A DNA stretch of 24,484 bases from a plasmid: sequence record NZ_CP136144.1. One strand, written 5' to 3'. A model generated the notes under the pieces. It did no database searches. It was not told where the DNA came from and saw only the letters and a list, made by a program, of their open reading frames with translations. The translations under genes were made by a program, and so were the position numbers. Below are positions 3,204 to 24,391 of this stretch, piece by piece. Within the stretch, counting starts at the first letter, position 1. The number at the start of each line of letters is the position of its first letter.

Positions 3204-4268
3204 TTAAACGAAATTTTGGATTATATAATCAGCTAAAACGTCATGTTCTGCCGACATAGTCTGCATTAGGGCTTTCTGAGGTCCTGACCAAGCCCCTCTG
3301 GCCAACACCCCCCTAGTAGGTGCTACGGTAGATAAATATCTGAGCGGGACCCCCTGTAAGATACTATCTGGAGCCATAACATTTAGGTCTTCAACTTTTG
3401 CGACAGGAGTGTCTGGAGTAAAAGAAGCCACTGCTGAGTATGTTTTTATAGATGCTAATTTGGGGCGAAGGTCATTTTTTACTGAATCAATTATTTTATC
3501 TCTATGGGCTGCATCAGCCGCGATCTCTGATGAGTTTTGTTGGCCTGGATTCTTTCTTTTATCAAATCCGTTGAAGACCCAACCTGCAAATTTAGGTGAA
3601 CCTTTTTGGCTTATTAGAGAGTTATTTTGGGCTGAAGTTCTTCTAATACCCTGTTCCCAGTCGTCTCTAAATTTTGGTAAAGTTTCACCAATGAGTCCTA
3701 TGCAGTAAGCCGAAAATATATCGGCAGTACATGGAACCAAGAAATAATCAGAACAGTAGAGAGCCGATCTGACTATCGTATTAAATGACGGCGGTACATC
3801 AATAAGAACATAATCGTATTCACAATTATTTAACTCTTGAGCTTTACTAGCAATTAAACTAGGTATCAAGAATCTGTTTACTGCGTTTCCAGCAATTAAA
3901 TCTGTACCTACACTAATCACATCTGAAAGATTATTGAGCCAAAAGTCACCTGGAGCTATGTCTAACCTTCCTGAGCCAGGCTCCATGGGAAATTGTGGTG
4001 GGAATGTATGTACGACAGGGAGAATATCTTGTTGTATAAATGGTTGGCAAAATGCTCTTATCGTTTTACCATAAGGATTATTTGCATCCCTCTTTAAAAG
4101 GTCAGAGAAGCCAGTCTCACCAAGTAAAGCTATTGATAAATTGCATTGAGGATCGAAATCTATCAGCAAAACAGATTTTCCCTTTGCCGATAGAGATACA
4201 CTTAAGTTCCAAGTCAGGGTCGTTTTTCCTACCCCGCCTTTGTTGTTAAATAGTGAAATAGTTTTCAT
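3204..4268 (-). CDS. ParA/MinD-superfamily ATPase, 354 aa (orphan; no adjacent ParB-like gene)
   Basis: Deviant Walker A KGGVGKTT near the N-terminus (MKTISLFNNKGGVGKTTLTWNLS...LLIDFDPQCNLS). Long C-terminal extension compared with typical ParA proteins. Confidence 0.7.
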   Translation of the reverse strand: MKTISLFNNKGGVGKTTLTWNLSVSLSAKGKSVLLIDFDPQCNLSIALLGETGFSDLLKRDANNPYGKTIRAFCQPFIQQDILPVVHTFPPQFPMEPGSGRLDIAPGDFWLNNLSDVISVGTDLIAGNAVNRFLIPSLIASKAQELNNCEYDYVLIDVPPSFNTIVRSALYCSDYFLVPCTADIFSAYCIGLIGETLPKFRDDWEQGIRRTSAQNNSLISQKGSPKFAGWVFNGFDKRKNPGQQNSSEIAADAAHRDKIIDSVKNDLRPKLASIKTYSAVASFTPDTPVAKVEDLNVMAPDSILQGVPLRYLSTVAPTRGVLARGAWSGPQKALMQTMSAEHDVLADYIIQNFV

Positions 4269-4973: not shown

Positions 4974-5594
4974 TTACTCAAACATTCTAACTATCTCTTT
5001 TGTAAGGATTTCTATTTCACCTTTTGCAGCACCATCACTGGATTCAAACACGCTGTCGCCATCAAGAATTGATTTCACGTAAACCTGACGTTGTGTAATA
5101 GCTGTACGAAATGCTTTAACACCGGTGTCTTTGATACTTTCTTTAAGCACATTCAACATGGTTGCCATTTCTATCTTACGGGTGATCAGAAAGCGGGCTT
5201 CAACTTTGCGGCTGTAAGCCTGTGCTTCCAGAACAGTAACGACGCTTCCTGCTGCGGAGAAATCCAGAGGGCTGGGGGTGACAGGGATAATTACCAGATC
5301 GCTTACCATGACGGCTGCGGAGGTGATTACTGAGAGTGAACCTGCCCCGTCCACAATAGCAAAGTCATAGTCCGCCAGATCTTTTCGGATTCCATAGACG
5401 TCTTTTTCAGATGCTGCTGTAAATACGTCAAATGCTGCCTTGCCCGCTTTGCTCCAGTTCGTCAGGCTCATTTGTGGATCTGTATCTACCACAGCAATGT
5501 TGTATCCGCTCCTGCTCAACGCAGTGGCTATGTTGATTACGGCAGTTGTTTTACCTGAACCCCCTTTCGGATTCAGAAATGAGATCACCTTCAT
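4974..5594 (-). CDS. parF: ParF-type small ParA (type Ib) partition ATPase, ~206 aa
   Basis: Walker A KGGSGKTT (MKVISFLNPKGGSGKTTAVINIATAL). GAGGA RBS 7 nt upstream of the internal ATG at 5594 (track ORF extends to 5624). ParG-like gene immediately downstream. Confidence 0.75.
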   Translation of the reverse strand: MKVISFLNPKGGSGKTTAVINIATALSRSGYNIAVVDTDPQMSLTNWSKAGKAAFDVFTAASEKDVYGIRKDLADYDFAIVDGAGSLSVITSAAVMVSDLVIIPVTPSPLDFSAAGSVVTVLEAQAYSRKVEARFLITRKIEMATMLNVLKESIKDTGVKAFRTAITQRQVYVKSILDGDSVFESSDGAAKGEIEILTKEIVRMFE

Positions 5595-6533: not shown

Positions 6534-6636
6534 AGGGGGCTAATATATCTGAAAGGCAGGGTATTAACTCAGGAGGTTGGGTGTGTGGTGTTTAGTCAAT
6601 GTAATTGAATATTGTAACTAAAATATGGTTTTATTA

Positions 6637-6664
6637 AAGGCCGGAGGTGGTTAGCCCCCGGCCT
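6637..6664 (-). terminator. Stem-loop (aaggccgg...ccggcctt) downstream of the dinQ-like ORF
   Basis: 8-bp perfect stem. On the minus strand it is followed by TTTAATAAAA (imperfect U-tract). Confidence 0.35.
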
Positions 6665-7818: not shown

Positions 7819-7919
7819 TGAAGCGTACTCCTGAATAACACTCTATTGCACATAGTAGCAAGCCAGATCCCGCGCAACCAGTATAAGGGGTCTGACGCTC
7901 AGTGGAACGAAAACTCACG

Positions 7920-10900
7920 TTAAGCAACGTTTTCTGCCTCTGACGCCTCTTTTAATGGTCTCAGATGTCCTTTGGTCACCAGTTCTGCCAGCGTGAAGGA
8001 ATAATGGCCGAGCATATTGATATGTCCGTGGCAAAGCGGGGAGAGGCGTGCGATATCTTCATCATTCAGTGTTTCACCCTGCGCCCGGAGATGATCCAGG
8101 GCTGCCTGCATATAAATAGTGTTCCATAACACGACGGCGTTAGTGACCAGCCCCAGTGTGCCCAGTTGATCTTCCTGACCGTCGGTATATCGTTTTCTTA
8201 TCTCACCTTTTTGACCGTGACAGATGGCTCTGGCAACGGCATGGCGACTTTCTCCCCGATTAAGCTGGGTCAGAATGCGCCGGCGGTAATCTTCATCATC
8301 AATATAATTAAGCAGATACAGCGTTTTGTTGATGCGCCCCACTTCAATGATTGCCTGAGTCAGTCCGGAAGGACGTTCACTTTTCAGCAATGAACGGACC
8401 AGCACTGAAACCTGTACTTTGCCCAGCTTCAGGGAGCCAGCGGTCCGGATCATTTCGTCCCACTGAAGGACTATTTTTCGGGGATCTGATTGCCCTCTGG
8501 CAATATCATTCAGCACGCCATAGTCGGCATCATGGTCCATTCGCCAGAAAACCGAAGCACCGGCATCAGCCAGGCGTGGAGAAAACTGGTATCCCAGCAG
8601 CCAGAAAAGGCCAAAGACAAGTTCGCTGGCACCTGCTGTATCGGTCATAATTTCGGTTGGATTCAGCCCGGTCTCCTGTTCCAGAAGACCTTCCAGCACA
8701 AAGATAGAGTCCCTCAGCGTCCCCGGTATAACGATGCCATGAAAGCCGGAATACTGATCGGACACAAAGTTGTACCAGGTGATCCCTCTGTTATTACCAA
8801 AGTATTTGCGGTTCGGTCCGGCATTGATTGTTCTGACTGGCGTAACAAAGCGCATTCCATCTGCAGATGCCACTTCTCCTCCACCCCATATCTGTGCCAG
8901 TGGCAGCGTTGCCTGAAAATCAACCAGTCTGGCATTAGCGCTGGTGATAGTTTCAGCCCGCAGATAGTTCGCTTTTGTCCAGTTCAGCCGGTGTCGGGTC
9001 AGTGCAGGAACATTTGATCTGATCAGTGGTTCCAGACCGATATTGCAGGCTTCAGCCATCAGCACGGCGCTGATGCTGACGGGCAGATCATCAACTCTGG
9101 CACTGGCTTCACTAGCATGGAAAAACTCATCAGCAAATCCGGTATGGGCGTTAATTTCGAGCAGCAACTCCGTTAAATCCACCGGAGGGAGTAGATCACT
9201 GATCATTTTGCTCAGTCGTTTCAGACTGTCCGGCTCATCAAGACTGGCGAGGGGAGAAATTGTCAACCGGGGCTTCGGGCCAGAAACATCGAGTTCGACA
9301 GCCTCATTTTCGCAAAGACGTGCAGCAACCTGTCTGTAACGACTATCAAGCTGATGACCCAGAGATTTTATTGCTTCCTGCGGGTCTGTCGGGTGCCCCA
9401 AAGAACGATAAACCTTAATCCGGTTTGCCTGCCAGTCAGCACCCTGTAGTAATCTTGCACGAGGATCTCCCCACCGGTTACTGCCGGTAACGTAGACATC
9501 CCTCCGCCTCAGACTATCCTGCAGTTTACTGAGAAAGCAGAGCGTGTATCCCCTGCGGGTGATATGTTTTTCCTTGTTAATCACCAGCCGTTTCCATGAC
9601 CGACTGATAATTTCCGTTGGTGCGTCGTCAAAAAACTGCCGCCGTGAGCTGAACTCCCGGCTGAGGTAGTCACAGGCATTCAGAGTGGTAACCCCGGCAG
9701 GTGCGGATGAAAATTTAACGGTATTCAGCAGATGGGGCAGGAAACGACGAACGCGCCCGTACTGCTCCACCATTTCTTCATGAAAATTATCGTCTGAGGG
9801 CCGGGCAATTTCACGGACAAGCGTGATGATTTCAGCCAGCTTTTGCCTTGGGATGTAGCTGAACACCTCAGCACGAATCGATTCGTCCGGTGTTTCTTCT
9901 TTCAGCAGGTACGAACATGCGCTGGCGAGCGCCAATGCAGATTTATCCAGATCCTTCAGCGAGCGGAGCCGTTTTTTCTGCCCAATCTTTCTGGCGTCAC
10001 GGATGATAACGGCCAGCATGGCGTCCAGAACGTCCAATGCATCATCCAGCGCCAGCGTTTCCCATGCAAGGACAAAGGCAACCAGAACCGCCATCCTTTT
10101 CTGCGGTGACATCCTGGCAATATTGAACACCGAAGTCATACCAGCATAACGTGCGAGATTTTTCAGGCGCACAGCCGGGAGTGTACTCAGGTTTTCAGCA
10201 TGCAGGCCAAAATCGTTCAGAGTTTTCCAGCGTTCAATTGCTTCATTAAACGCCGGACCACTGATGGTCACAGGGCCCTTTTTCAGTGATTCCAGTAAAG
10301 ACAGGCGGCTGCAATCAGTTGGCCCCAGCAGCATCTCCAGCTGTGAACGCTGTTCGGCTGACGGTATCAGTGCCAGTTTGTTCCACAGGCGCAACGTCGC
10401 CTTTTCCCTTACCTCTGAAATCAACCGGGTCAGCGTAGTGGCTCCGGGGAGAATAATACGATGTTGCATAAGCCACCCTGTCGCCAGATCGAAAAGCAGG
10501 CCAGGACGTTCGTTGCTTATCCAGCTCCGGGTATATAAAAGACGGGTAAGGCGAAATGTCCAGGGCCAGGCAAATTCACGATACTGATAGTGCTGACGTA
10601 TCAGCGCTGCATGCTCACGGCGGGTATTTTCCCTCTGACCGTATTCTGCAAGAACGGTGATATCACGAATCCCGAGCTGTCTGGCGGTAAAATGCCGGAC
10701 GCCGGAAGGAATATGATTCATATCGGTGAGGAAGGTGCCCAGAAAACGGACACATCCAATTTGCAGGGCAATGCCCAGACGGTTGTGATCACCTCTGCTT
10801 TTTCCGATAAATTCCTTGTCTGCTTCATCAAGGTGAAAATATCGTGCCAGCTGAAGCTCATCCGGTTCACCGGTGAATCTGCCATAGCTTTCAGTCTGCT

Positions 10901-12689: not shown

Positions 12690-12898
12690 CTGTCAGACCA
12701 AGTTTACTCATATATACTTTAGATTGATTTAAAACTTCATTTTTAATTTAAAAGGATCTAGGTGAAGATCCTTTTTGATAATCTCATGACCAAAATCCCT
12801 TAACGTGAGTTTTCGTTCCACTGAGCGTCAGACCCCTAAAAGAACTTTCCGCTAAGCGATAGACTGTATGTAAACACAGTATTGCAAGGACGCGGAAC

Positions 12899-18879: not shown

Positions 18880-19425
18880 TCACATCTCCACTTTATTTGA
18901 AACAGTTCTCCCTTTACATAACATAATGTAATTCTCAAACTGATTCTTAAGATTAAAAATTTCTGTTGTAAGACGCTCCGCATCCTGATAGAAACCATCT
19001 TTATCAAGAACCCTGGTCTGATCATTAACAATGATATAATGGAAATTACGACCGATCTTATCAATTGAATTACGGCAACGATTCATCATCAGCAGTTCCT
19101 GGTCAAAGAAATCCAGTTCATTTTCAAGTGTCGTTTGTATGCGGTAACGACATTCTCGGGATAACGTCCATCCGTGACGATTAGCAGCTCTTTCAATATC
19201 AGCCCTTTGTTTACCTGTTAAGTACATCGTTGTTTTGATAAAATCATTATTATCAAAAAACGTATTTATACCCTTACTGCCAGCTTTACTTTTTAATAAA
19301 GCATTTGCTAAAAGTTTCATGCCTTTAGCTACTGTTAAAGCTGGTTCATCTGGATAAAGAGTTTTAAGGCAATCCAGCAAATCATCATGCTGATTTTCAT
19401 CAATTCTGAATTGAACTTTTTTCAT
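18880..19425 (-). CDS. taxA: Relaxosome accessory protein (MobC/TaxA-like), ~181 aa
   Basis: Immediately upstream of the relaxase gene, 2-nt spacing. Contains LTGKQRADIERAANRHGWTLSRECRYRI. Start is the ATG at 19425 with a GGAG RBS. The track's N-terminal 23 aa come from reading into the inverted repeat. Confidence 0.5.
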   Translation of the reverse strand: MKKVQFRIDENQHDDLLDCLKTLYPDEPALTVAKGMKLLANALLKSKAGSKGINTFFDNNDFIKTTMYLTGKQRADIERAANRHGWTLSRECRYRIQTTLENELDFFDQELLMMNRCRNSIDKIGRNFHYIIVNDQTRVLDKDGFYQDAERLTTEIFNLKNQFENYIMLCKGRTVSNKVEM

Positions 19426-19527
19426 AAAATTCTCCGACAAGAACCGACTGTAGGTCACCGGGCAAACGTTGCGGAATGGCGTTAGAGACGTCATTTTGCG
19501 GCGTTTGCCCTATCCTGCATCGCAGTG
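19423..19527. repeat. oriT-like inverted-repeat copy B (partner of 2211-2315)
   Basis: Reverse complement matches copy A, with one mismatch over ~89 bp. Lies directly upstream of the taxA-like accessory gene, where an oriT is expected. Confidence 0.6.
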
Positions 19528-19750
19528 GATCTGGCACCGCTCATAAATTGTGCTTGAGCATCAACAAAAATGCAAAAAGGCCGATGTTGTCATGGCTGAA
19601 CATACGTGCGTCTGCGACCGGAAACTCGATCAATGCGGTAAGGACAGTGCCGTCAGGTTCGCTCCGCGAACGGTCTGGCAGGAAGCGCAAGCGCAGTCCC
19701 GCGCAATATATCAGAAAGCACCTCCCGAAATACGGGAGGGCTTCGGCTAT

Positions 19751-20023
19751 TCAGCTAAGGTTGCTCTGTTCAGGTTGCTGAGTGTAGCCTTCCATGCCCT
19801 GACGGGCATCAAAAAGCCAGCGCCGGAAGTTACTCATTCTTTCAAGGTTAGCTTTGCTTGGTTTTTTGCCACGATTACCACTTAATATCCGCCATACTCG
19901 TATTCCTGCTTTATTAGTCCAGTGCAGAACAATTTCTCCTTTGCTGTTAAAAGCAAGAGAAAAACGTACAGCGCCTTGCCGCAACTCTCCACTGACAAAG
20001 GACACAAAATCAGATTTTGTCAT
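19751..20023 (-). CDS. Hypothetical protein, 90 aa
   Basis: GGAGG 6 nt upstream of the ATG. Follows the 48-aa ORF by 16 nt. Confidence 0.45.
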   Translation of the reverse strand: MTKSDFVSFVSGELRQGAVRFSLAFNSKGEIVLHWTNKAGIRVWRILSGNRGKKPSKANLERMSNFRRWLFDARQGMEGYTQQPEQSNLS

Positions 20024-20039
20024 AAAGCCTCCGGTTTAT

Positions 20040-20186
20040 TTATCTGTTCTCTTTTGTGTCTTTTTTTTCCAGTGCTTTTCTGAGTAATGCCATATACTCA
20101 GGAAAGACATGGAATGGCATCAAAGGGAAAACCGGACGCCCACCCTTTTCAACGTCATTTATTGCTGATAATATGCGTTCCGACAT
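20040..20186 (-). CDS. Hypothetical small protein, ~48 aa (MSERILSAINDVEKGG...)
   Basis: AGGA RBS before the internal ATG at 20186. The track ORF starts further upstream, inside the palindrome. Confidence 0.35.
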   Translation of the reverse strand: MSERILSAINDVEKGGRPVFPLMPFHVFPEYMALLRKALEKKDTKENR

Positions 20187-20216
20187 TTTATTCCTCGCAA
20201 CAGAATCAAGTGTCAC

Positions 20217-20245
20217 GGTATCAGGTTGCCCCACAACCTGATACC
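20217..20245. promoter_or_regulatory. Perfect 12-bp inverted repeat GGTATCAGGTTG-ccccA-CAACCTGATACC (operator or leader hairpin)
   Basis: Seen directly. Lies between the 59-aa and 48-aa genes and is not followed by a U-tract. Confidence 0.4.
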
Positions 20246-20255
20246 ATCTTTATCT

Positions 20256-20435
20256 TTACTTTATTAACTTCTCAATTGCTTCTTTTTTTGCTTTCTCCTG
20301 TTCTGATGGTGGGTATGCAAGGTCATACCAGTTATCAATACAACGAATAACTCTTTCTTTAGATAATCCACATTGCTCAAACCAAAATTTTATATTTCGG
20401 TTTAATGATGCTTTTGCGCTAAACTCTCTTTCCAT
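20256..20435 (-). CDS. Hypothetical small protein, 59 aa (MEREFSAKASLNRNIKFWFEQCGLSKERVIRCIDNWYDLAYPPSEQEKAKKEAIEKLIK)
   Basis: Manually translated. Below the track's 60-aa cut-off. Weak RBS. Confidence 0.3.
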   Translation of the reverse strand: MEREFSAKASLNRNIKFWFEQCGLSKERVIRCIDNWYDLAYPPSEQEKAKKEAIEKLIK

Positions 20436-20454
20436 TTTCAGACCTTTACTAAAA

Positions 20455-20469
20455 GGGGGAATATCCCCC
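20455..20469 (-). terminator. Rho-independent terminator GGGGGATATTCCCCC + TTTTT (minus strand) for the 109-aa gene
   Basis: Perfect 5-bp GC stem with 5-nt loop and T5 on the minus strand, 9 nt after the stop at 20478. Confidence 0.6.
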
Positions 20470-20477
20470 CTGATTAA

Positions 20478-20807
20478 TTAGTAGTAAGAAGAAAATCGAT
20501 GTTTTTCTTCCGGTAGAGTTTTATACGCAGTTTCAAAATCTTCGATTTTGATTGCCAGCTCATCACCAAAATCTTTTATCTGGCGCTTAAAACATTCACC
20601 AGTAAAATCATTTAAAACGGGAGTTTTAAAGCCGACCATTGAATCGGTATATTCTGAATTAGCGCGAATCTCGCGAACGGTGACGGTTTTTTTACCGTGA
20701 ACGGAAAGAACCTGGTAGAAGGTTACATTGGTTTGCTCATAGCCCCATGATGATACAAAGACATCACCAACAGAGACAGTATCATTTTTAAAAGTTAATA
20801 CTTTCAT
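20478..20807 (-). CDS. Hypothetical protein, 109 aa
   Basis: ATG preceded by GGGAG, within the conserved leader cassette. No family recognised. Confidence 0.5.
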   Translation of the reverse strand: MKVLTFKNDTVSVGDVFVSSWGYEQTNVTFYQVLSVHGKKTVTVREIRANSEYTDSMVGFKTPVLNDFTGECFKRQIKDFGDELAIKIEDFETAYKTLPEEKHRFSSYY

Positions 20808-20900
20808 TTTTAGCTCCCGCCCGTTTGGGCAACTGGATCATGGTAAGGAACTATTCCTGACCTACAAACAAATTATACCATCAAATGATGGTAATGCAAT
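20808..20900 (-). promoter_or_regulatory. Promoter/operator/leader cassette copy 1: -35 TTGCAT, 16-nt spacer containing palindrome TACCATCAAATGATGGTA, -10 TATAAT, then conserved leader cccaaacgggcgggagc
   Basis: Read on the minus strand. ~85% identical to 22549-22642. Confidence 0.55.
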
Positions 20901-21143
20901 TTATTTAGTCTCTTTATTCTGATTTTTTTCTCGCTTTACTAGCTGGTAATCGGGATGTTCATCAGCCAGGAGCAAAAGTAATTCATACGTACCAGCGGCT
21001 AGACCGCGAGATGTTTTGCCGGATGTTTCTTTGGCCTGCCAGGCTGATAACGAAAAACCAAACCGTTTAGCGGCTTCCTGCTGCGTAAAGCCAGCTTTGA
21101 TACGAGCTTGTTTCACCTCTTCAGGTGTGGGTTTAAAACTCAT
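20901..21143 (-). CDS. XRE-family helix-turn-helix DNA-binding protein, 80 aa
   Basis: TQQEAAKRFGFSLSAWQAKETSGK HTH. Last gene of a three-gene operon with overlapping stop/start codons. Confidence 0.55.
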   Translation of the reverse strand: MSFKPTPEEVKQARIKAGFTQQEAAKRFGFSLSAWQAKETSGKTSRGLAAGTYELLLLLADEHPDYQLVKREKNQNKETK

Positions 21144-21414
21144 GATTTAGTACCTTCACAATAGTATCTGTATAGAATTGCAATAAAATTGGATCATCAA
21201 TTTCATCTTTAACGTTACAGAATTCTTCATAATAAAATGATTTATGGAAAACAACCTTTTTAGTTGTTTTTTTATCCGCTTCTTTAGAGCGAACTTTCAT
21301 TAGTTTTTCAAGTTCAATAAACAAACGTGTTGCATCTTCAGACACAACAATCCTGTATGTTACATTACCTTTATTTTTCCTGTCGCTCAGGACTTCATTC
21401 ATCTTTTGCCTCAT
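21133..21414 (-). CDS. Hypothetical protein, 93 aa
   Basis: Overlaps the upstream gene by ATGA and the downstream gene by 11 nt (translationally coupled). Confidence 0.45.
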   Translation of the reverse strand: MRQKMNEVLSDRKNKGNVTYRIVVSEDATRLFIELEKLMKVRSKEADKKTTKKVVFHKSFYYEEFCNVKDEIDDPILLQFYTDTIVKVLNHEF

Positions 21415-21977
21415 AGCTGTTTAATAAACCCCGCTACCTTTATGAGCTGATCCACACTCAGGCCACGTATTACCATTTCAAAACCGCCGCCCCGTTCTGA
21501 CACGTTACCATCTAACCCATTCTCAACTTTAAAACCGGTCAATGTCCCATGCCAGCTATCAAGACGTATTAAACGAGATAGCATTCCTTTCAGAATTTGC
21601 GTTTGCTCCCGTTTTTTTTGTAACTGCCTTTCATATTCCATTGCCTTCTCTACATTTTCGAAAGCATCTGTCAGGATTTTCTTTTCAATATCGGCGGCAA
21701 TTTCTACAGGGTTACGTTCTGGCGATACAGTGCAAGTATGGTAAGGACTTCGCCAACTTCGACTATCTACGCTTCCAATGATAACTAACCTTCCCTTCTC
21801 CATTCGAATATGTATAGAGTAATTTTTATACTGAGGCGAGGTTAGTTTTATCCTGTACTGGCAATCATCGAGCAGGTTTACACGCCAGCCGTTCCCCAGG
21901 ATTCGACATACGATTTCAAAAACGGGTTGATACCGTTCAAAAAACTTATCGTTTTGCATATTCCTCCCAACTGACAC
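21411..21977 (-). CDS. Hypothetical protein, 188 aa
   Basis: GGGAGGAAT ATG. First gene of the operon. No family recognised. Confidence 0.5.
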   Translation of the reverse strand: MSVGRNMQNDKFFERYQPVFEIVCRILGNGWRVNLLDDCQYRIKLTSPQYKNYSIHIRMEKGRLVIIGSVDSRSWRSPYHTCTVSPERNPVEIAADIEKKILTDAFENVEKAMEYERQLQKKREQTQILKGMLSRLIRLDSWHGTLTGFKVENGLDGNVSERGGGFEMVIRGLSVDQLIKVAGFIKQL

Positions 21978-22009
21978 CTTCGTTATTTAGTGAACATATT
22001 TATAATAAT

Positions 22010-22029
22010 AAGGGGCTTTCGCCCCCTTC
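22010..22029 (-). terminator. Stem-loop GGGGGCGAAAGCCCC followed by TTATTATTAT (minus strand), downstream of the J-domain gene
   Basis: 5-6 bp GC stem immediately after the stop at 22033. Confidence 0.45.
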
Positions 22030-22032
22030 TGG

Positions 22033-22548
22033 TTACGCTCTGGTTTCCACTTGTTGCCATCCCGTCGCCCTGCGCTGTCCGGTCGAACCATATTTTGCGC
22101 GGATTTCCTCTATCGTGTGTTCTTCACGGTTCCAGTAACTTTTATGTTCTTCCGGACGATAAAACCATTGTTTTTTCTTTGCGGCCCATTTACACCCGAT
22201 TTCTTTTAACGTTTCTTTATGAGTAATGGTTTCACCACTAATCCATACCCAATTACCAATAACTTCATAGACAATTCCAGTCAGGCCGGAAAGAGTATTC
22301 AAAACTTTTTCCAGATCTTCACCGTAGTTGTAACGTGCGTTTTCATCAGTGCTTTGAAACTGATTAATTTTGTCAATGTTAGCCATGAGAAAATCAAACG
22401 CAGCGTTAACTGCTTTCATCAGTTCGGCACCCAGTGGATTACGATCTGGATGATATTTTAAAGCCGCTTTTCTGTAGGCCGCCTTGATGTCCTTTTCAGT
22501 CAGATCGCCGGATAAACCAAAAATGTTTAATGCTTCCTGAATATTCAT
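22033..22548 (-). CDS. J-domain (DnaJ N-terminal domain) protein, 171 aa
   Basis: MNIQEALNIFGLSGDLTEKDIKAAYRKAALKYHPDRNPLGAELMKAVNAAFDFL, with the HPD motif. C-terminal ~100 aa unrecognised. True start at 22548 (the track ORF extends upstream through the leader). Confidence 0.65.
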   Translation of the reverse strand: MNIQEALNIFGLSGDLTEKDIKAAYRKAALKYHPDRNPLGAELMKAVNAAFDFLMANIDKINQFQSTDENARYNYGEDLEKVLNTLSGLTGIVYEVIGNWVWISGETITHKETLKEIGCKWAAKKKQWFYRPEEHKSYWNREEHTIEEIRAKYGSTGQRRATGWQQVETRA

Positions 22549-22642
22549 TTTTCGCTCCCGCCCGTTTGGGCTGCTGGAATCTGGCAGGGAACCATTCCCA
22601 ACCAACAAACTCATCATACCATCATATGATGGTATGGCAAGT
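22549..22642 (-). promoter_or_regulatory. Promoter/operator/leader cassette copy 2: -35 TTGCCA, 16-nt spacer with perfect 20-bp palindrome ATACCATCATATGATGGTAT, -10 TATGAT, conserved leader and GGGAG RBS
   Basis: Homologous to 20808-20900. Confidence 0.55.
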
Positions 22643-22897
22643 TTTTTATGCCCGTCAGGGCATGGAAGGCGACACACCAGACGCCGAATAGAATTGCCAT
22701 TCCCGAATCGCCGGAAACAAACCAGCTTAATTAAGATCAGGGACATCCCCCCTCCCTGCAAAGCCCATTACCGGACTAACAACACGCAATTAGCCTTTCG
22801 CAGTTAGCGCGTAAGCTTGCGAACGGTACGCCGTGACGGTGTGTAGCATCTGCGCGTCTGAGCGGCTGCAGCCGCGAATTACGGGGCGGGTTTCAGT

Positions 22898-23179
22898 TCA
22901 GCGCATATCTGCAATCTGATAAACTTCGCTGCTTTCCCTTCTTCCAACAGCAATAACGAGTAAAACGACTTTCTCATCAATGACTTGATATACAAGTCTG
23001 TAGCCAGATGCACGAAGTTTGATTTTATAGCGATCAGCATGACCATGTAACCGGGCTGCGGGTACGCGTGGATTTTCCAGCCGTTCTGCCAGCTTCTTTT
23101 TGAATTGTTCACGGATGGTGTGGCCGAGTTTCTGCCATTCCTTCAGTGCTCTGCGGTCAAAAGCCAGTTCATAGGTCAT
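22898..23179 (-). CDS. relE: RelE/ParE-family toxin (RelE/StbE-like), 93 aa
   Basis: MTYELAFDRRALKEWQKLGHTIREQFKKKLAERL...YKIKLRASGYRLVYQVIDEKVVLLVIAVGRRESSEVY. Very close to my recollection of E. coli RelE. Confidence 0.8.
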   Translation of the reverse strand: MTYELAFDRRALKEWQKLGHTIREQFKKKLAERLENPRVPAARLHGHADRYKIKLRASGYRLVYQVIDEKVVLLVIAVGRRESSEVYQIADMR

Positions 23180-23420
23180 CCAGGTTAACCTTCACAATTT
23201 CCGGGTTTTTCATGCGCTCATCAGCAACAGCGTTTAACTCAGCATCTTCAGCGAGTTCCCGATAGTAGGCGTAAAGTTTTGGTGGAACGCAATAGAACGC
23301 CGGTTCGTTTCGGTTCAGGATCGCAACAGCGTCCCCTTCACCTTCAGCTACGGTTCCCATAGGATTTTTTTTCAGGTCAGTAATACTGGCCGCTGTGGTT
23401 GTCAGAATTTGATAGCTCAT
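23169..23420 (-). CDS. relB: Antitoxin (RelB/StbD / Phd-YefM-like), 83 aa
   Basis: Overlaps the toxin gene by 11 nt and is upstream of it. Small acidic protein. Confidence 0.65.
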   Translation of the reverse strand: MSYQILTTTAASITDLKKNPMGTVAEGEGDAVAILNRNEPAFYCVPPKLYAYYRELAEDAELNAVADERMKNPEIVKVNLDDL

Positions 23421-24071: not shown

Positions 24072-24162
24072 AGGCTCTGTGCATTTAAAAAACTTATCTT
24101 TTCTTCTTGATCTTAAAAACTTAAAAACTTAGAGAGCCGTAACCTCATGAAAAACATAATAA

Positions 24163-24294
24163 AAAAACGCTAAAGTTGAGAGGATTTTTAACATAAGTTG
24201 AGAAGATTTTTAAGTAAGGTTGAGAAGATTTTTAACTAAAGATGAGAGGATTTTTAAGTAAGGTTGAGAAGATTTTTAACTAAAGATGAGAGGA
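24163..24294. repeat. Six tandem 22-bp iterons (aRgWtgagaRgatttttaaSNN): gamma-origin-like Rep-binding array
   Basis: Units at 24163, 24185, 24207, 24229, 24251 and 24273. Units 3-4 are repeated exactly as 5-6. Preceded by AT-rich block 24100-24160. Confidence 0.85.
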
Positions 24295-24391
24295 TTTTTA
24301 AGTGTATCCACAGATTTAAAAAAGATCATGAAAAACATAATGTTATGAATTCATTTTAATGTGAATACATAAAGATCTTTATATCTAAAGG

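Follow-up and report, generated by a model that had tools for sequence, protein, structure and literature searches.

The 24,484-nt stretch analysed here (the window; sequence record NZ_CP136144.1) comes from a plasmid, and its segment 20400-22800 is 99.8-100% identical to each of the 25 best records listed, several of them IncX-typed, such as pMAS2027; the region is the backbone of an IncX1-type conjugative plasmid. All genes from a RelE/ParE toxin-antitoxin pair to taxC lie on the minus strand. In the direction of transcription the pair is followed by genes for a J-domain protein, a 182-amino acid (aa) protein, a 93-aa protein (here the partner), an 80-aa helix-turn-helix (HTH) protein and a 109-aa protein, and then by three small open reading frames (ORFs), the last of which encodes a homologue of VirBR, before an origin-of-transfer (oriT)-like repeat (Table 1). 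The J-domain gene and the 109-aa gene are each preceded by a copy of the same promoter, operator and 5' untranslated region (5'UTR), termed cassette B and cassette A, respectively. The 80-aa protein is probably an autoregulated XRE-type repressor that shuts these two strong promoters beside oriT, the promoters themselves being part of a portable promoter/operator/5'UTR module.

A repeat search returns the cassettes as one two-copy direct repeat (20803-20907 and 22544-22648, 81% identity over 105 nt). The original prediction had placed the duplication correctly and on the correct strand but set its identity slightly too high at about 85%, since a global alignment of 20808-20900 with 22549-22642 gives 77 identical positions out of 95 (81%). 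The likeness ends precisely at the start codon on one side and a little upstream of the -35 element on the other; beyond these limits identity falls to the random level, with 25% over the 60 upstream nucleotides and 34% over the first 90 nt of the coding regions, so that the resemblance is confined to the cassette. The first description was also right about the -35 and -10 hexamers, the spacer length of 16 nt, the hairpin GCCC-AAAC-GGGC and the ribosome-binding site GGGAG. Promoter A has a perfect -10 hexamer preceded by TGG, and promoter B has TG before its -10 hexamer and agrees with the consensus at 10 of 12 positions. The spacer is filled by the 18-bp palindrome TACCATCAWWTGATGGTA, which overlaps the first 2 nt of the -10 element. 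Within the window the palindrome TACCATCAWATGATGGTA occurs at the two operators only, even when up to three mismatches are allowed, and shuffled sequences contain a mean of 0.05 sites, with none of 100 shuffles reaching the observed count. A search beyond the window, which the first description had called for, gives the same picture: the complete IncX1 plasmid pMAS2027 (42.6 kb) contains exactly two TACCATCAWWTGATGGTA sites, both of them in promoter cassettes. The -10 element of cassette B reads TATGGT in pMAS2027 (41475-41490 region) and TATGAT in the window, and the -35 element of the IncX3 cassette B is ATTCCA; the strength of this promoter seems to drift between near-identical plasmids.

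Table 1 Features of the cassette region and its surroundings, in the direction of transcription
Feature	Coordinates	Strand	Remarks
RelE/ParE toxin-antitoxin pair	23420-22898	-	First in transcription order; upstream of cassette B
Cassette B	22549..22648	-	Would drive the J-domain gene; A-rich tract upstream of -35
-35 element B	22640-22635	-	TTGCCA
Operator B	22617..22634		Perfect 18-bp palindrome TACCATCATATGATGGTA
-10 element B	22618-22613	-	TATGAT
Hairpin 1, cassette B	22603-22583	-	Begins at about +4
Hairpin 2, cassette B	22571-22560	-	GCCCAAACGGGC
Ribosome-binding site B	22559-22555	-	GGGAG
J-domain protein gene	22033..22548	-	171 aa; first gene behind cassette B, start codon at 22548; Pfam DnaJ E = 2.6e-11
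Hairpin after J-domain gene	22027-22010		Lacks a good T-run
182-aa gene	21411..21959	-	Between the J-domain gene and the partner/HTH pair
93-aa partner gene	21133..21414	-	Overlaps the HTH start by 11 nt
80-aa HTH gene	20901..21143	-	XRE/MqsA-C-like; candidate repressor; stop codon abuts cassette A
Cassette A	20808..20907	-	Would drive the 109-aa gene; starts 1 nt past the HTH stop codon
-35 element A	20899-20894	-	TTGCAT
Operator A	20876..20893		TACCATCATTTGATGGTA as read on the minus strand
-10 element A	20877-20872	-	TATAAT
Hairpin 1, cassette A	20862-20842	-	Begins at about +4
Hairpin 2, cassette A	20830-20819	-	GCCC-AAAC-GGGC
Ribosome-binding site A	20818-20814	-	GGGAG
109-aa gene	20478..20807	-	First gene behind cassette A, start codon at 20807; sole match phrog_37844
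Hairpin after 109-aa gene	20470-20456		Terminator-like; directly after the gene
Second hairpin	20245-20217		Between the 109-aa gene and the virBR homologue
VirBR homologue	19751..20023	-	74% identity to the IncX3 85-aa protein; last gene before oriT (PMC11214620)
oriT-like repeat	19527-19420		Just upstream of taxA and taxC

Cassettes of this kind are widespread. With cassette B as the query, blastn finds matches in 1109 PLSDB plasmids, mostly at two places per record, and the cassettes of the class 2 and IncX4 types described below add a further 1044 and 837 plasmids, counts which include several hundred partial matches, located in larger plasmids and mostly covering that end of the query which holds the leader. 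Among the matches listed, full-cassette ones (at least 80%) are mostly on IncX plasmids and a few other replicons, and partial ones are on larger untyped plasmids. The shared cassette of the original prediction is also kept outside the window, as IncX1, IncX3 and IncX5 plasmids carry it at the same two positions and with the same gene order (J-domain, 182 aa, partner, HTH, cassette, small gene). A cassette upstream of the J-domain gene is found in IncX3, IncX5 and also IncX4, and two IncX4 plasmids have the same order up to the HTH gene, from which about 270-540 nt lead to the second cassette. The same design recurs in IncX4, an IncFII plasmid, a 24-kb MOBC plasmid, plasmids of Pantoea, Serratia, Rosenbergiella and Mixta, and the chromosome of Erwinia tracheiphila. 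The cargo behind these cassettes consists of J-domain, 109-aa, 112-aa, 107/101-aa, 90-aa, RadC and antirestriction genes. Since the two copies are orthologous across IncX1, IncX3 and IncX5 and the same design exists in other groups, the duplication is old and has been maintained.

Homologues of the 109-aa protein are found behind a cassette in many loci. In the one on the Erwinia tracheiphila chromosome (at about 7646) an (SV)n repeat close to the N-terminus is expanded (MNVLTFKNDTVSVSVSVSVSV...), which suggests slippage or decay in an integrated copy. An HTH gene is present in every cassette-bearing plasmid inspected except pDSJ03 of Pantoea stewartii, a decayed IncX-like plasmid that has lost the gene beside an IS4 insertion. 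Near the start of the pDSJ03 record lies a class 1 cassette, now an orphan, whose -35 element is degraded (TGTTAT); it precedes a J-domain gene as its presumptive promoter and is, among the intact cassettes, the only one that lacks an HTH gene. A genome-wide pattern scan gave matches in Mesobacillus, Thiomargarita and Christensenellaceae that are unrelated, lacking both the leader and an HTH gene, and matches in a Lachnospiraceae metagenome-assembled genome, Micromonospora and Arthrobacter that are enterobacterial plasmid fragments or short contigs, probably contamination.

The strongest support for the 80-aa protein as the factor that would bind the palindrome as a dimer and repress the promoters comes from co-variation. 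Wherever a cassette-bearing locus encodes an HTH protein (about 20 of the 31 loci fetched), the class of operator follows the clade of the adjacent HTH protein, and four classes can be told apart. In class 1 (11 loci) the operator is TACCATCAWWTGATGGTA (TACCATCA) and the HTH proteins are 82-100% identical to that of the window and carry the helix F[ST]LSAWQAKE, whereas in class 2 (7 loci) the operator is TACCTGCAWWTGCAGGTA (TACCTGCA) and the proteins are 55-62% identical, with the helix YQLN[ST]WQMKE. The remaining two classes are represented by one locus each, an IncX4 operator ATACGAC-N6-GTCGTAT with a protein of 49% identity, and an IncX4 variant ATACATC-N6-GATGTAT with a protein of 44% identity and the helix VGLSTWQKKE. 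Across the classes the outer TAC...GTA and the overall length of the operator are constant and the inner bases vary symmetrically, RNAalifold on the cassettes registering changes on both sides at three palindrome positions. The substitutions that separate the HTH classes fall within the predicted recognition helix, helix 3 (residues 32-39, LSAWQAKE). Plasmid p4 of Pantoea stewartii (NZ_CP046562.1) combines a class 1 system (TACCATCA) with one of class 2 (TACCTGCA), both of which have an HTH protein of their own, and is a natural case of co-resident, presumably orthogonal repressor/operator pairs. In most of the HTH-encoding loci the HTH stop codon abuts the -35 element of the cassette; the exceptions are one locus (L008) and the two IncX4 plasmids.

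The AlphaFold2 model of the 80-aa protein (pLDDT, the predicted local distance difference test, 76.7) has four helices at residues 7-17, 21-27, 32-39 and 50-59. Its best Foldseek matches are Aca1 in complex with palindromic DNA, Aca10, MqsA-C, HipB and restriction-modification controller proteins, all of them small dimeric repressors that act on inverted repeats in promoters; the match probability is 0.99-1.0 for Aca1, MqsA-C, HipB, C.Esp1396I and ImmR. A common dimeric regulator with this protein as the candidate had been proposed at the outset, and the co-variation, the recognition-helix changes, the abutting stop codon, the fold and the genetics of a pOXA-48 homologue all argue for it. Relatives of the protein are encoded in 3886 plasmids by tblastn, pOXA-48 among them, and all database homologues are annotated 'hypothetical'.

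In pOXA-48 the relative consists of two such HTH domains fused in tandem, with approximately 40% identity, and its position after resD-parA-parB-nuc-orf19 identifies it as Orf20 (PMC12365149). Orf20 is essential: its gene can be removed only if a copy is provided in trans, recipients of the deletion plasmid elongate and cease dividing, and silencing by CRISPR interference leads to plasmid loss, while the papers leave its target sites open (PMC12365149; PMC12361523). Genetically it behaves like an essential repressor. Two promoters of pOXA-48, one before orf19-orf20 and one before orf22, are cassette-like and have a common TTTATATGGCTCATTNGNCGTAT between -35 and -10; the orf22 copy has a two-hairpin leader and the orf19 copy is seen to share only the end with the second hairpin and the ribosome-binding site. 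Orf19-Orf20 thus resembles the IncX arrangement in that a true HTH homologue follows a small partner gene among cassette-like promoters with a shared operator, but it differs in the tandem fusion and in a candidate operator that is not palindromic. A related 87-kb plasmid of K. pneumoniae (CP025214.1) carries three copies (3730-3835, 5270-5370 and 6560-6655) with a common GGTATGTCTTTTGTCGTATAAT and a leader of two hairpins. Behind these copies stand a RadC/JAB gene, a small ORF wrongly annotated as CbiX and an antirestriction gene, and the first of the three copies comes directly after a tandem-HTH gene; this plasmid is a link between the cassette family and known counter-defence cargo.

It is also conceivable, if unlikely, that the operator is read by something besides the HTH protein alone, either by the partner, on its own or in an obligatory co-repressor complex with the HTH protein of the toxin-antitoxin kind, or by VirBR or H-NS. 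The 11-nt overlap of the partner gene with the HTH start suggests translational coupling, the pair is conserved across operator classes 1-4 with a partner identity of 21-32% and a shared basic RKNKGN.TY motif, and the partner diverges along with the operator class. The partner is modelled by AlphaFold2 with a pLDDT of 90.7 as four strands followed by two helices, and its fold matches are weak (PUR-alpha, PC4 and NTF2-like); judging from this model it could be a nucleic-acid-binding cofactor, although it carries no DNA-binding signature. RelE/MqsR-type toxins are absent among the listed fold matches, and the Prokaryotic Genome Annotation Pipeline (PGAP) names one HTH homologue 'MqsA family antitoxin'. 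Against a decisive role of the partner stands pOXA-48, where deletion of orf19, which occupies the partner's position, has no phenotype and the HTH gene orf20 is the essential one (PMC12365149). VirBR was considered as the regulator of the cassettes and rejected, as its published site is AT-rich, lies upstream of actX and is unrelated to the palindrome (PMC11214620), and virBR itself is a gene downstream of cassette A; moreover, neither VirBR nor H-NS would explain operators that are specific to a class.

The leader between promoter and start codon is the third conserved part of the cassette. All seven representative leaders fold into a 5'-proximal hairpin 1 plus a hairpin 2 that ends at the ribosome-binding site, and in per-sequence folding with a shuffle control 21 of 22 distinct leaders are predicted to form both hairpins, compared to 0.8% of shuffles. 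The stems of hairpin 2 vary with compensation (GCCC/GGGC, GCCCA/UGGGC, GCCCC/GGGGC, GUCC/GGAC and GCGCC/GGCGC), and those of hairpin 1 differ by class yet stay paired, for example GGUUGGGAA/UUCCCUGCC in comparison with GAAAGGGAA/UUCUCUUUC. RNAalifold additionally predicts a pairing between the CC in AUCCAG, a conserved motif, and the GG in the ribosome-binding site, but not all classes keep it. No Rfam 15 family overlaps the leaders in a search of 19300-23300, even at E <= 10. A recruitment site for ActX/PrfaH, a NusG paralogue, was considered because GGCGGGAGC in the leader resembles the RfaH ops element GGCGGTAGC, and was dropped for lack of a match to the mapped PrfaH site. The latter, as reconstructed from named point mutants and a described stem-loop, lies upstream of prfaH and begins T-C-G-G-G-G-T-C-A-T-C-C-G-A-G (+1 to +15) (PMC11880322). 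The GGGAG of the leader is simply the ribosome-binding site and not a PrfaH element.

Less likely again is that the leader acts as DNA, be it as a second protein site (e.g. GGAA-N3-TTCC), as a recombination site by which cargo is shuffled, or as a hairpin signal in single-stranded DNA (ssDNA) such as a primosome site or an ssDNA promoter. Both hairpins are small DNA palindromes too, the template strand folded as ssDNA gives three hairpins with z about -3, and different cargo flanks the cassettes in different plasmids, as expected under recombination; R6K is moreover reported to carry single-strand initiation sequences (Nomura 1991, in the citation given by PMC11541004). However, hairpin 1 of the class 2 and IncX4 leaders contains G-T pairs (e.g. 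GAAAGGGGAA/TTCTTCTTTC), which become C-A mismatches on the transferred strand, so that the structure under selection is on the sense strand, i.e. in the RNA. The stem sequences also change with their pairing kept, which is unusual for DNA sites recognised by proteins, and hairpin 2 always ends exactly at the ribosome-binding site. An ssDNA promoter of the Frpo/ssi type was rejected specifically, because the three template-strand hairpins are short and separate and no long one rebuilds a duplex -35/-10; in this fold the -35 and -10 elements are unpaired, or paired to each other across the palindrome.

That the two copies are merely a recent duplication or gene-conversion tract, with the palindrome a weak terminator of the upstream genes (HTH; RelE/ParE) or incidental, is highly improbable, for although the scan lists both palindromes as terminator-like hairpins and both lie downstream of same-strand genes, the copies are old by the orthology given above and bounded precisely by the start codon and the -35 element, the palindrome changes symmetrically along with the HTH protein, and an intrinsic terminator was rejected since the palindromes offer no G+C-rich stem with a T-run but an AT-rich stem of 3-4 G-C pairs, followed by TAATTTG or CAAGTTTTTT in the window and by A-rich sequence (TATAATAAAA) in the other classes.

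The autoregulated repressor of the two cassettes would work as follows. Each cassette would be a strong sigma-70 promoter with the palindromic operator as its spacer, and an HTH dimer bound there would cover this spacer together with the start of the -10 element and so block RNA polymerase (RNAP). Cassette B would start an operon of J-domain, 182-aa, partner and HTH genes, to which the 182-aa gene (family searches including Pfam gave no match for its product) probably belongs and of which the HTH gene is the last. As the HTH protein would be made from the cassette-B operon and its stop codon abuts cassette A, a negative-feedback loop would result that also controls the 109-aa gene. In the established plasmid both promoters would be nearly shut, whereas in a fresh transconjugant without repressor they would be expected to fire hard once the DNA is double-stranded, until the HTH protein accumulates. 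Hairpin 1 probably stabilises the 5' end of the mRNA, going by established work on 5' stem-loops and mRNA stability, and hairpin 2 probably fixes a translation-initiation context independent of the gene, insulating the ribosome-binding site from what follows, which would let the module precede any cargo gene. Both genes face the oriT-like repeat, as initially noted, and this agrees with the orientation rule for leading-region genes (PMC11541004); by analogy with MOBP plasmids the cassette side of oriT is inferred to be the leading side.

Several points weigh against this reading. The case rests throughout on sequence comparison and on the phenotype of a homologue. The partner co-varies with the operator as well, and co-variation alone therefore cannot single out the HTH protein. 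The HTH model is of medium confidence, and the protein scores below the curated thresholds of all Pfam and NCBIfam HTH families, with 20.2 bits for HTH_31 (cut-off 27), 18.1 for HTH_3 (cut-off 23), 19.2 for MqsA_antitoxin (cut-off 30) and 19 for TIGR03830 of NCBIfam (cut-off 61.8); it is a divergent lineage without a curated model of its own. The -35 element of cassette A matches the consensus at only 3 of 6 positions, for which reason the promoter scan did not list promoter A. The hairpin at 22027-22010 could end transcription before the HTH gene and thereby break the autoregulation. As to the leaders, the 22 sequences are non-independent samples because the cassettes are related by descent, the folding z-scores per leader are modest (-0.4 to -3.4), and the MAFFT alignment leaves hairpin 1 out of register owing to differences in loop length, so that column-based covariation counts are understated or blurred; these were replaced by the per-sequence folding and shuffles.

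The control exerted by the repressor loop may extend downstream of the 109-aa gene as far as virBR. VirBR is an activator of the IncX actX promoter, from which the type IV secretion system is expressed (PMC11214620), and since its homologue lies downstream of cassette A on the same strand, the HTH repressor might affect conjugation indirectly, with the hairpins at 20470-20456 and 20245-20217 separating the gene from cassette A. In R6K an RNAP peak in chromatin immunoprecipitation is reported 'upstream from virBR' (PMC13250579); it is compatible with cassette A, its exact position being beyond the resolution of the published text.

Regulons of one repressor and repeated operators embedded in promoters are textbook knowledge from the IncP kor, IncN CUP and IncW systems, and in view of these precedents the result is useful rather than astonishing to a specialist. 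In IncP plasmids RK2/RP4 the small repressor KorC acts on a palindrome at the klcA, kleA and kleC promoters as part of the kil-kor regulon. The IncX cassettes resemble KorC/KorA in that a small repressor would act on identical palindromes inside a few strong promoters and in that loss of the repressor harms the host (compare Orf20), but they differ in protein family and operator, in the lack of korA/korB-type partners and in targets that are a J-domain gene and small genes beside oriT. Targets of RP4 KorC are also mentioned in the pOXA-48 work (PMC12365149). The CUP element of the IncN plasmids pKM101/R46 is a repeated promoter with a repressor site that stands before several unrelated leading-region and establishment genes, with ArdK/ArdR autoregulated from one of the copies (Delver and Belogurov 1997, as given in PMC6289460). 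Here too the element is repeated before at least two unrelated genes near oriT, and the repressor is proposed to autoregulate through one copy; unlike CUP, the IncX module has a structured 5'UTR and several operator specificities. ArdK belongs to the TrfB/KorA family (PMC6289460), and the 80-aa protein matches no TrfB model but only XRE-type ones (HTH_31, MqsA_antitoxin and HTH_3), all below threshold, which sets the IncX cassette apart from CUP/ArdK by protein family. In function the cassette regulon is a circuit of the kind seen in the IncN CUP/ArdK and IncP KorC regulons and in the anti-CRISPR operons under Aca control; judging by the repressor families, it would be an analogue of the two plasmid regulons rather than a homologue.

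Two further comparisons concern the protein itself. Aca1 and Aca10 (PDB 7c0g and 7xi5) are the best fold matches (TM-score 0.62-0.79), and Aca10 is 37% identical over 57 residues, a marginal sequence similarity (E = 0.028). Both are small HTH dimers whose binding sites are inverted repeats in a strong promoter, and both damp an early burst of counter-defence genes; in the IncX case, by contrast, no anti-CRISPR gene was identified among the cargo, and the HTH gene lies upstream of one target and downstream of the other. With MqsA the 80-aa protein shares a C-terminal HTH domain that is a weak match by sequence and a clear one by fold, as well as the position of the regulator gene after a small partner gene, and the class 2 operator, which begins with ACCT and ends with AGGT, resembles MqsA half-sites. 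It differs in the absence of an N-terminal zinc-binding (CxxCG) domain, in half-site spacing and in having the promoters of other genes as its targets. An MqsRA-type module does not fit, as the protein is free of cysteine and its alignment to MqsA is limited to residues 70-125, and the partner fold is not RelE/MqsR-like.

No description of the operator 16-mers or of the regulon was found in the literature searched, and the design, while familiar among plasmids, seems undescribed for the IncX family. The practical interest lies in the kind of plasmids concerned and in the puzzle of why Orf20 is essential. The IncX3 (NDM) and IncX4 (mcr-1) plasmids and pOXA-48 rank among the most important carriers of resistance, and their genes between the replication region and oriT are nearly all annotated 'hypothetical'. 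The present analysis provides a regulatory map for the block near oriT with its promoters, operator and candidate repressor, finds the same design with exchangeable operator specificity across plasmid groups, and offers a testable explanation for the essentiality of Orf20. The natural orthogonal repressor/operator pairs and the compact gene-independent 5'UTR could serve as genetic parts.

A broader reading can be put forward only tentatively, and is at present rather doubtful. The cassette and the partner/HTH pair may form a portable expression module of thousands of Enterobacterales resistance plasmids (IncX1-5, IncL/M pOXA-48 and IncI-like) that exists in several orthogonal specificities and gates early genes on the oriT side, maybe toxic or counter-defence ones, with the leader providing a layer of control at the RNA level that is possibly read by the PUR/PC4-like partner. 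If this were true, derepression of the cassettes would explain why Orf20 is essential, and blocking a single repressor family could make several major carbapenemase and mcr plasmids self-destruct.

Some other features of the window bear on its plasmid type and history. A 108-nt inverted repeat (2211-2318 and 19420-19527, 95% identity), one copy of which is beside taxA, looks like two oriT-type copies as in R6K-type plasmids, and six tandem 22-bp iterons at 24148-24323 (consensus about TAAGGTTGAGAAGATTTTTAAC) are typical of a replication origin of the R6K/IncX type. About 4.9 kb, presumably a resistance transposon inserted in the backbone, is bracketed by a perfect inverted repeat of 39 nt (7886-7924 and 12799-12837) that is of the Tn3-family terminal type. 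Finally, a 34-nt inverted repeat of 94% identity that includes the hairpin ATGCCCGTCAGGGCAT has one copy inside the 3' end of the virBR homologue (19782-19815) and the other directly upstream of cassette B (22642-22675), where the motif ARQGMEG from the C-terminus of VirBR recurs in a short ORF on the plus strand; the inverted repeat may be the remnant of an inverted virBR/oriT segment.

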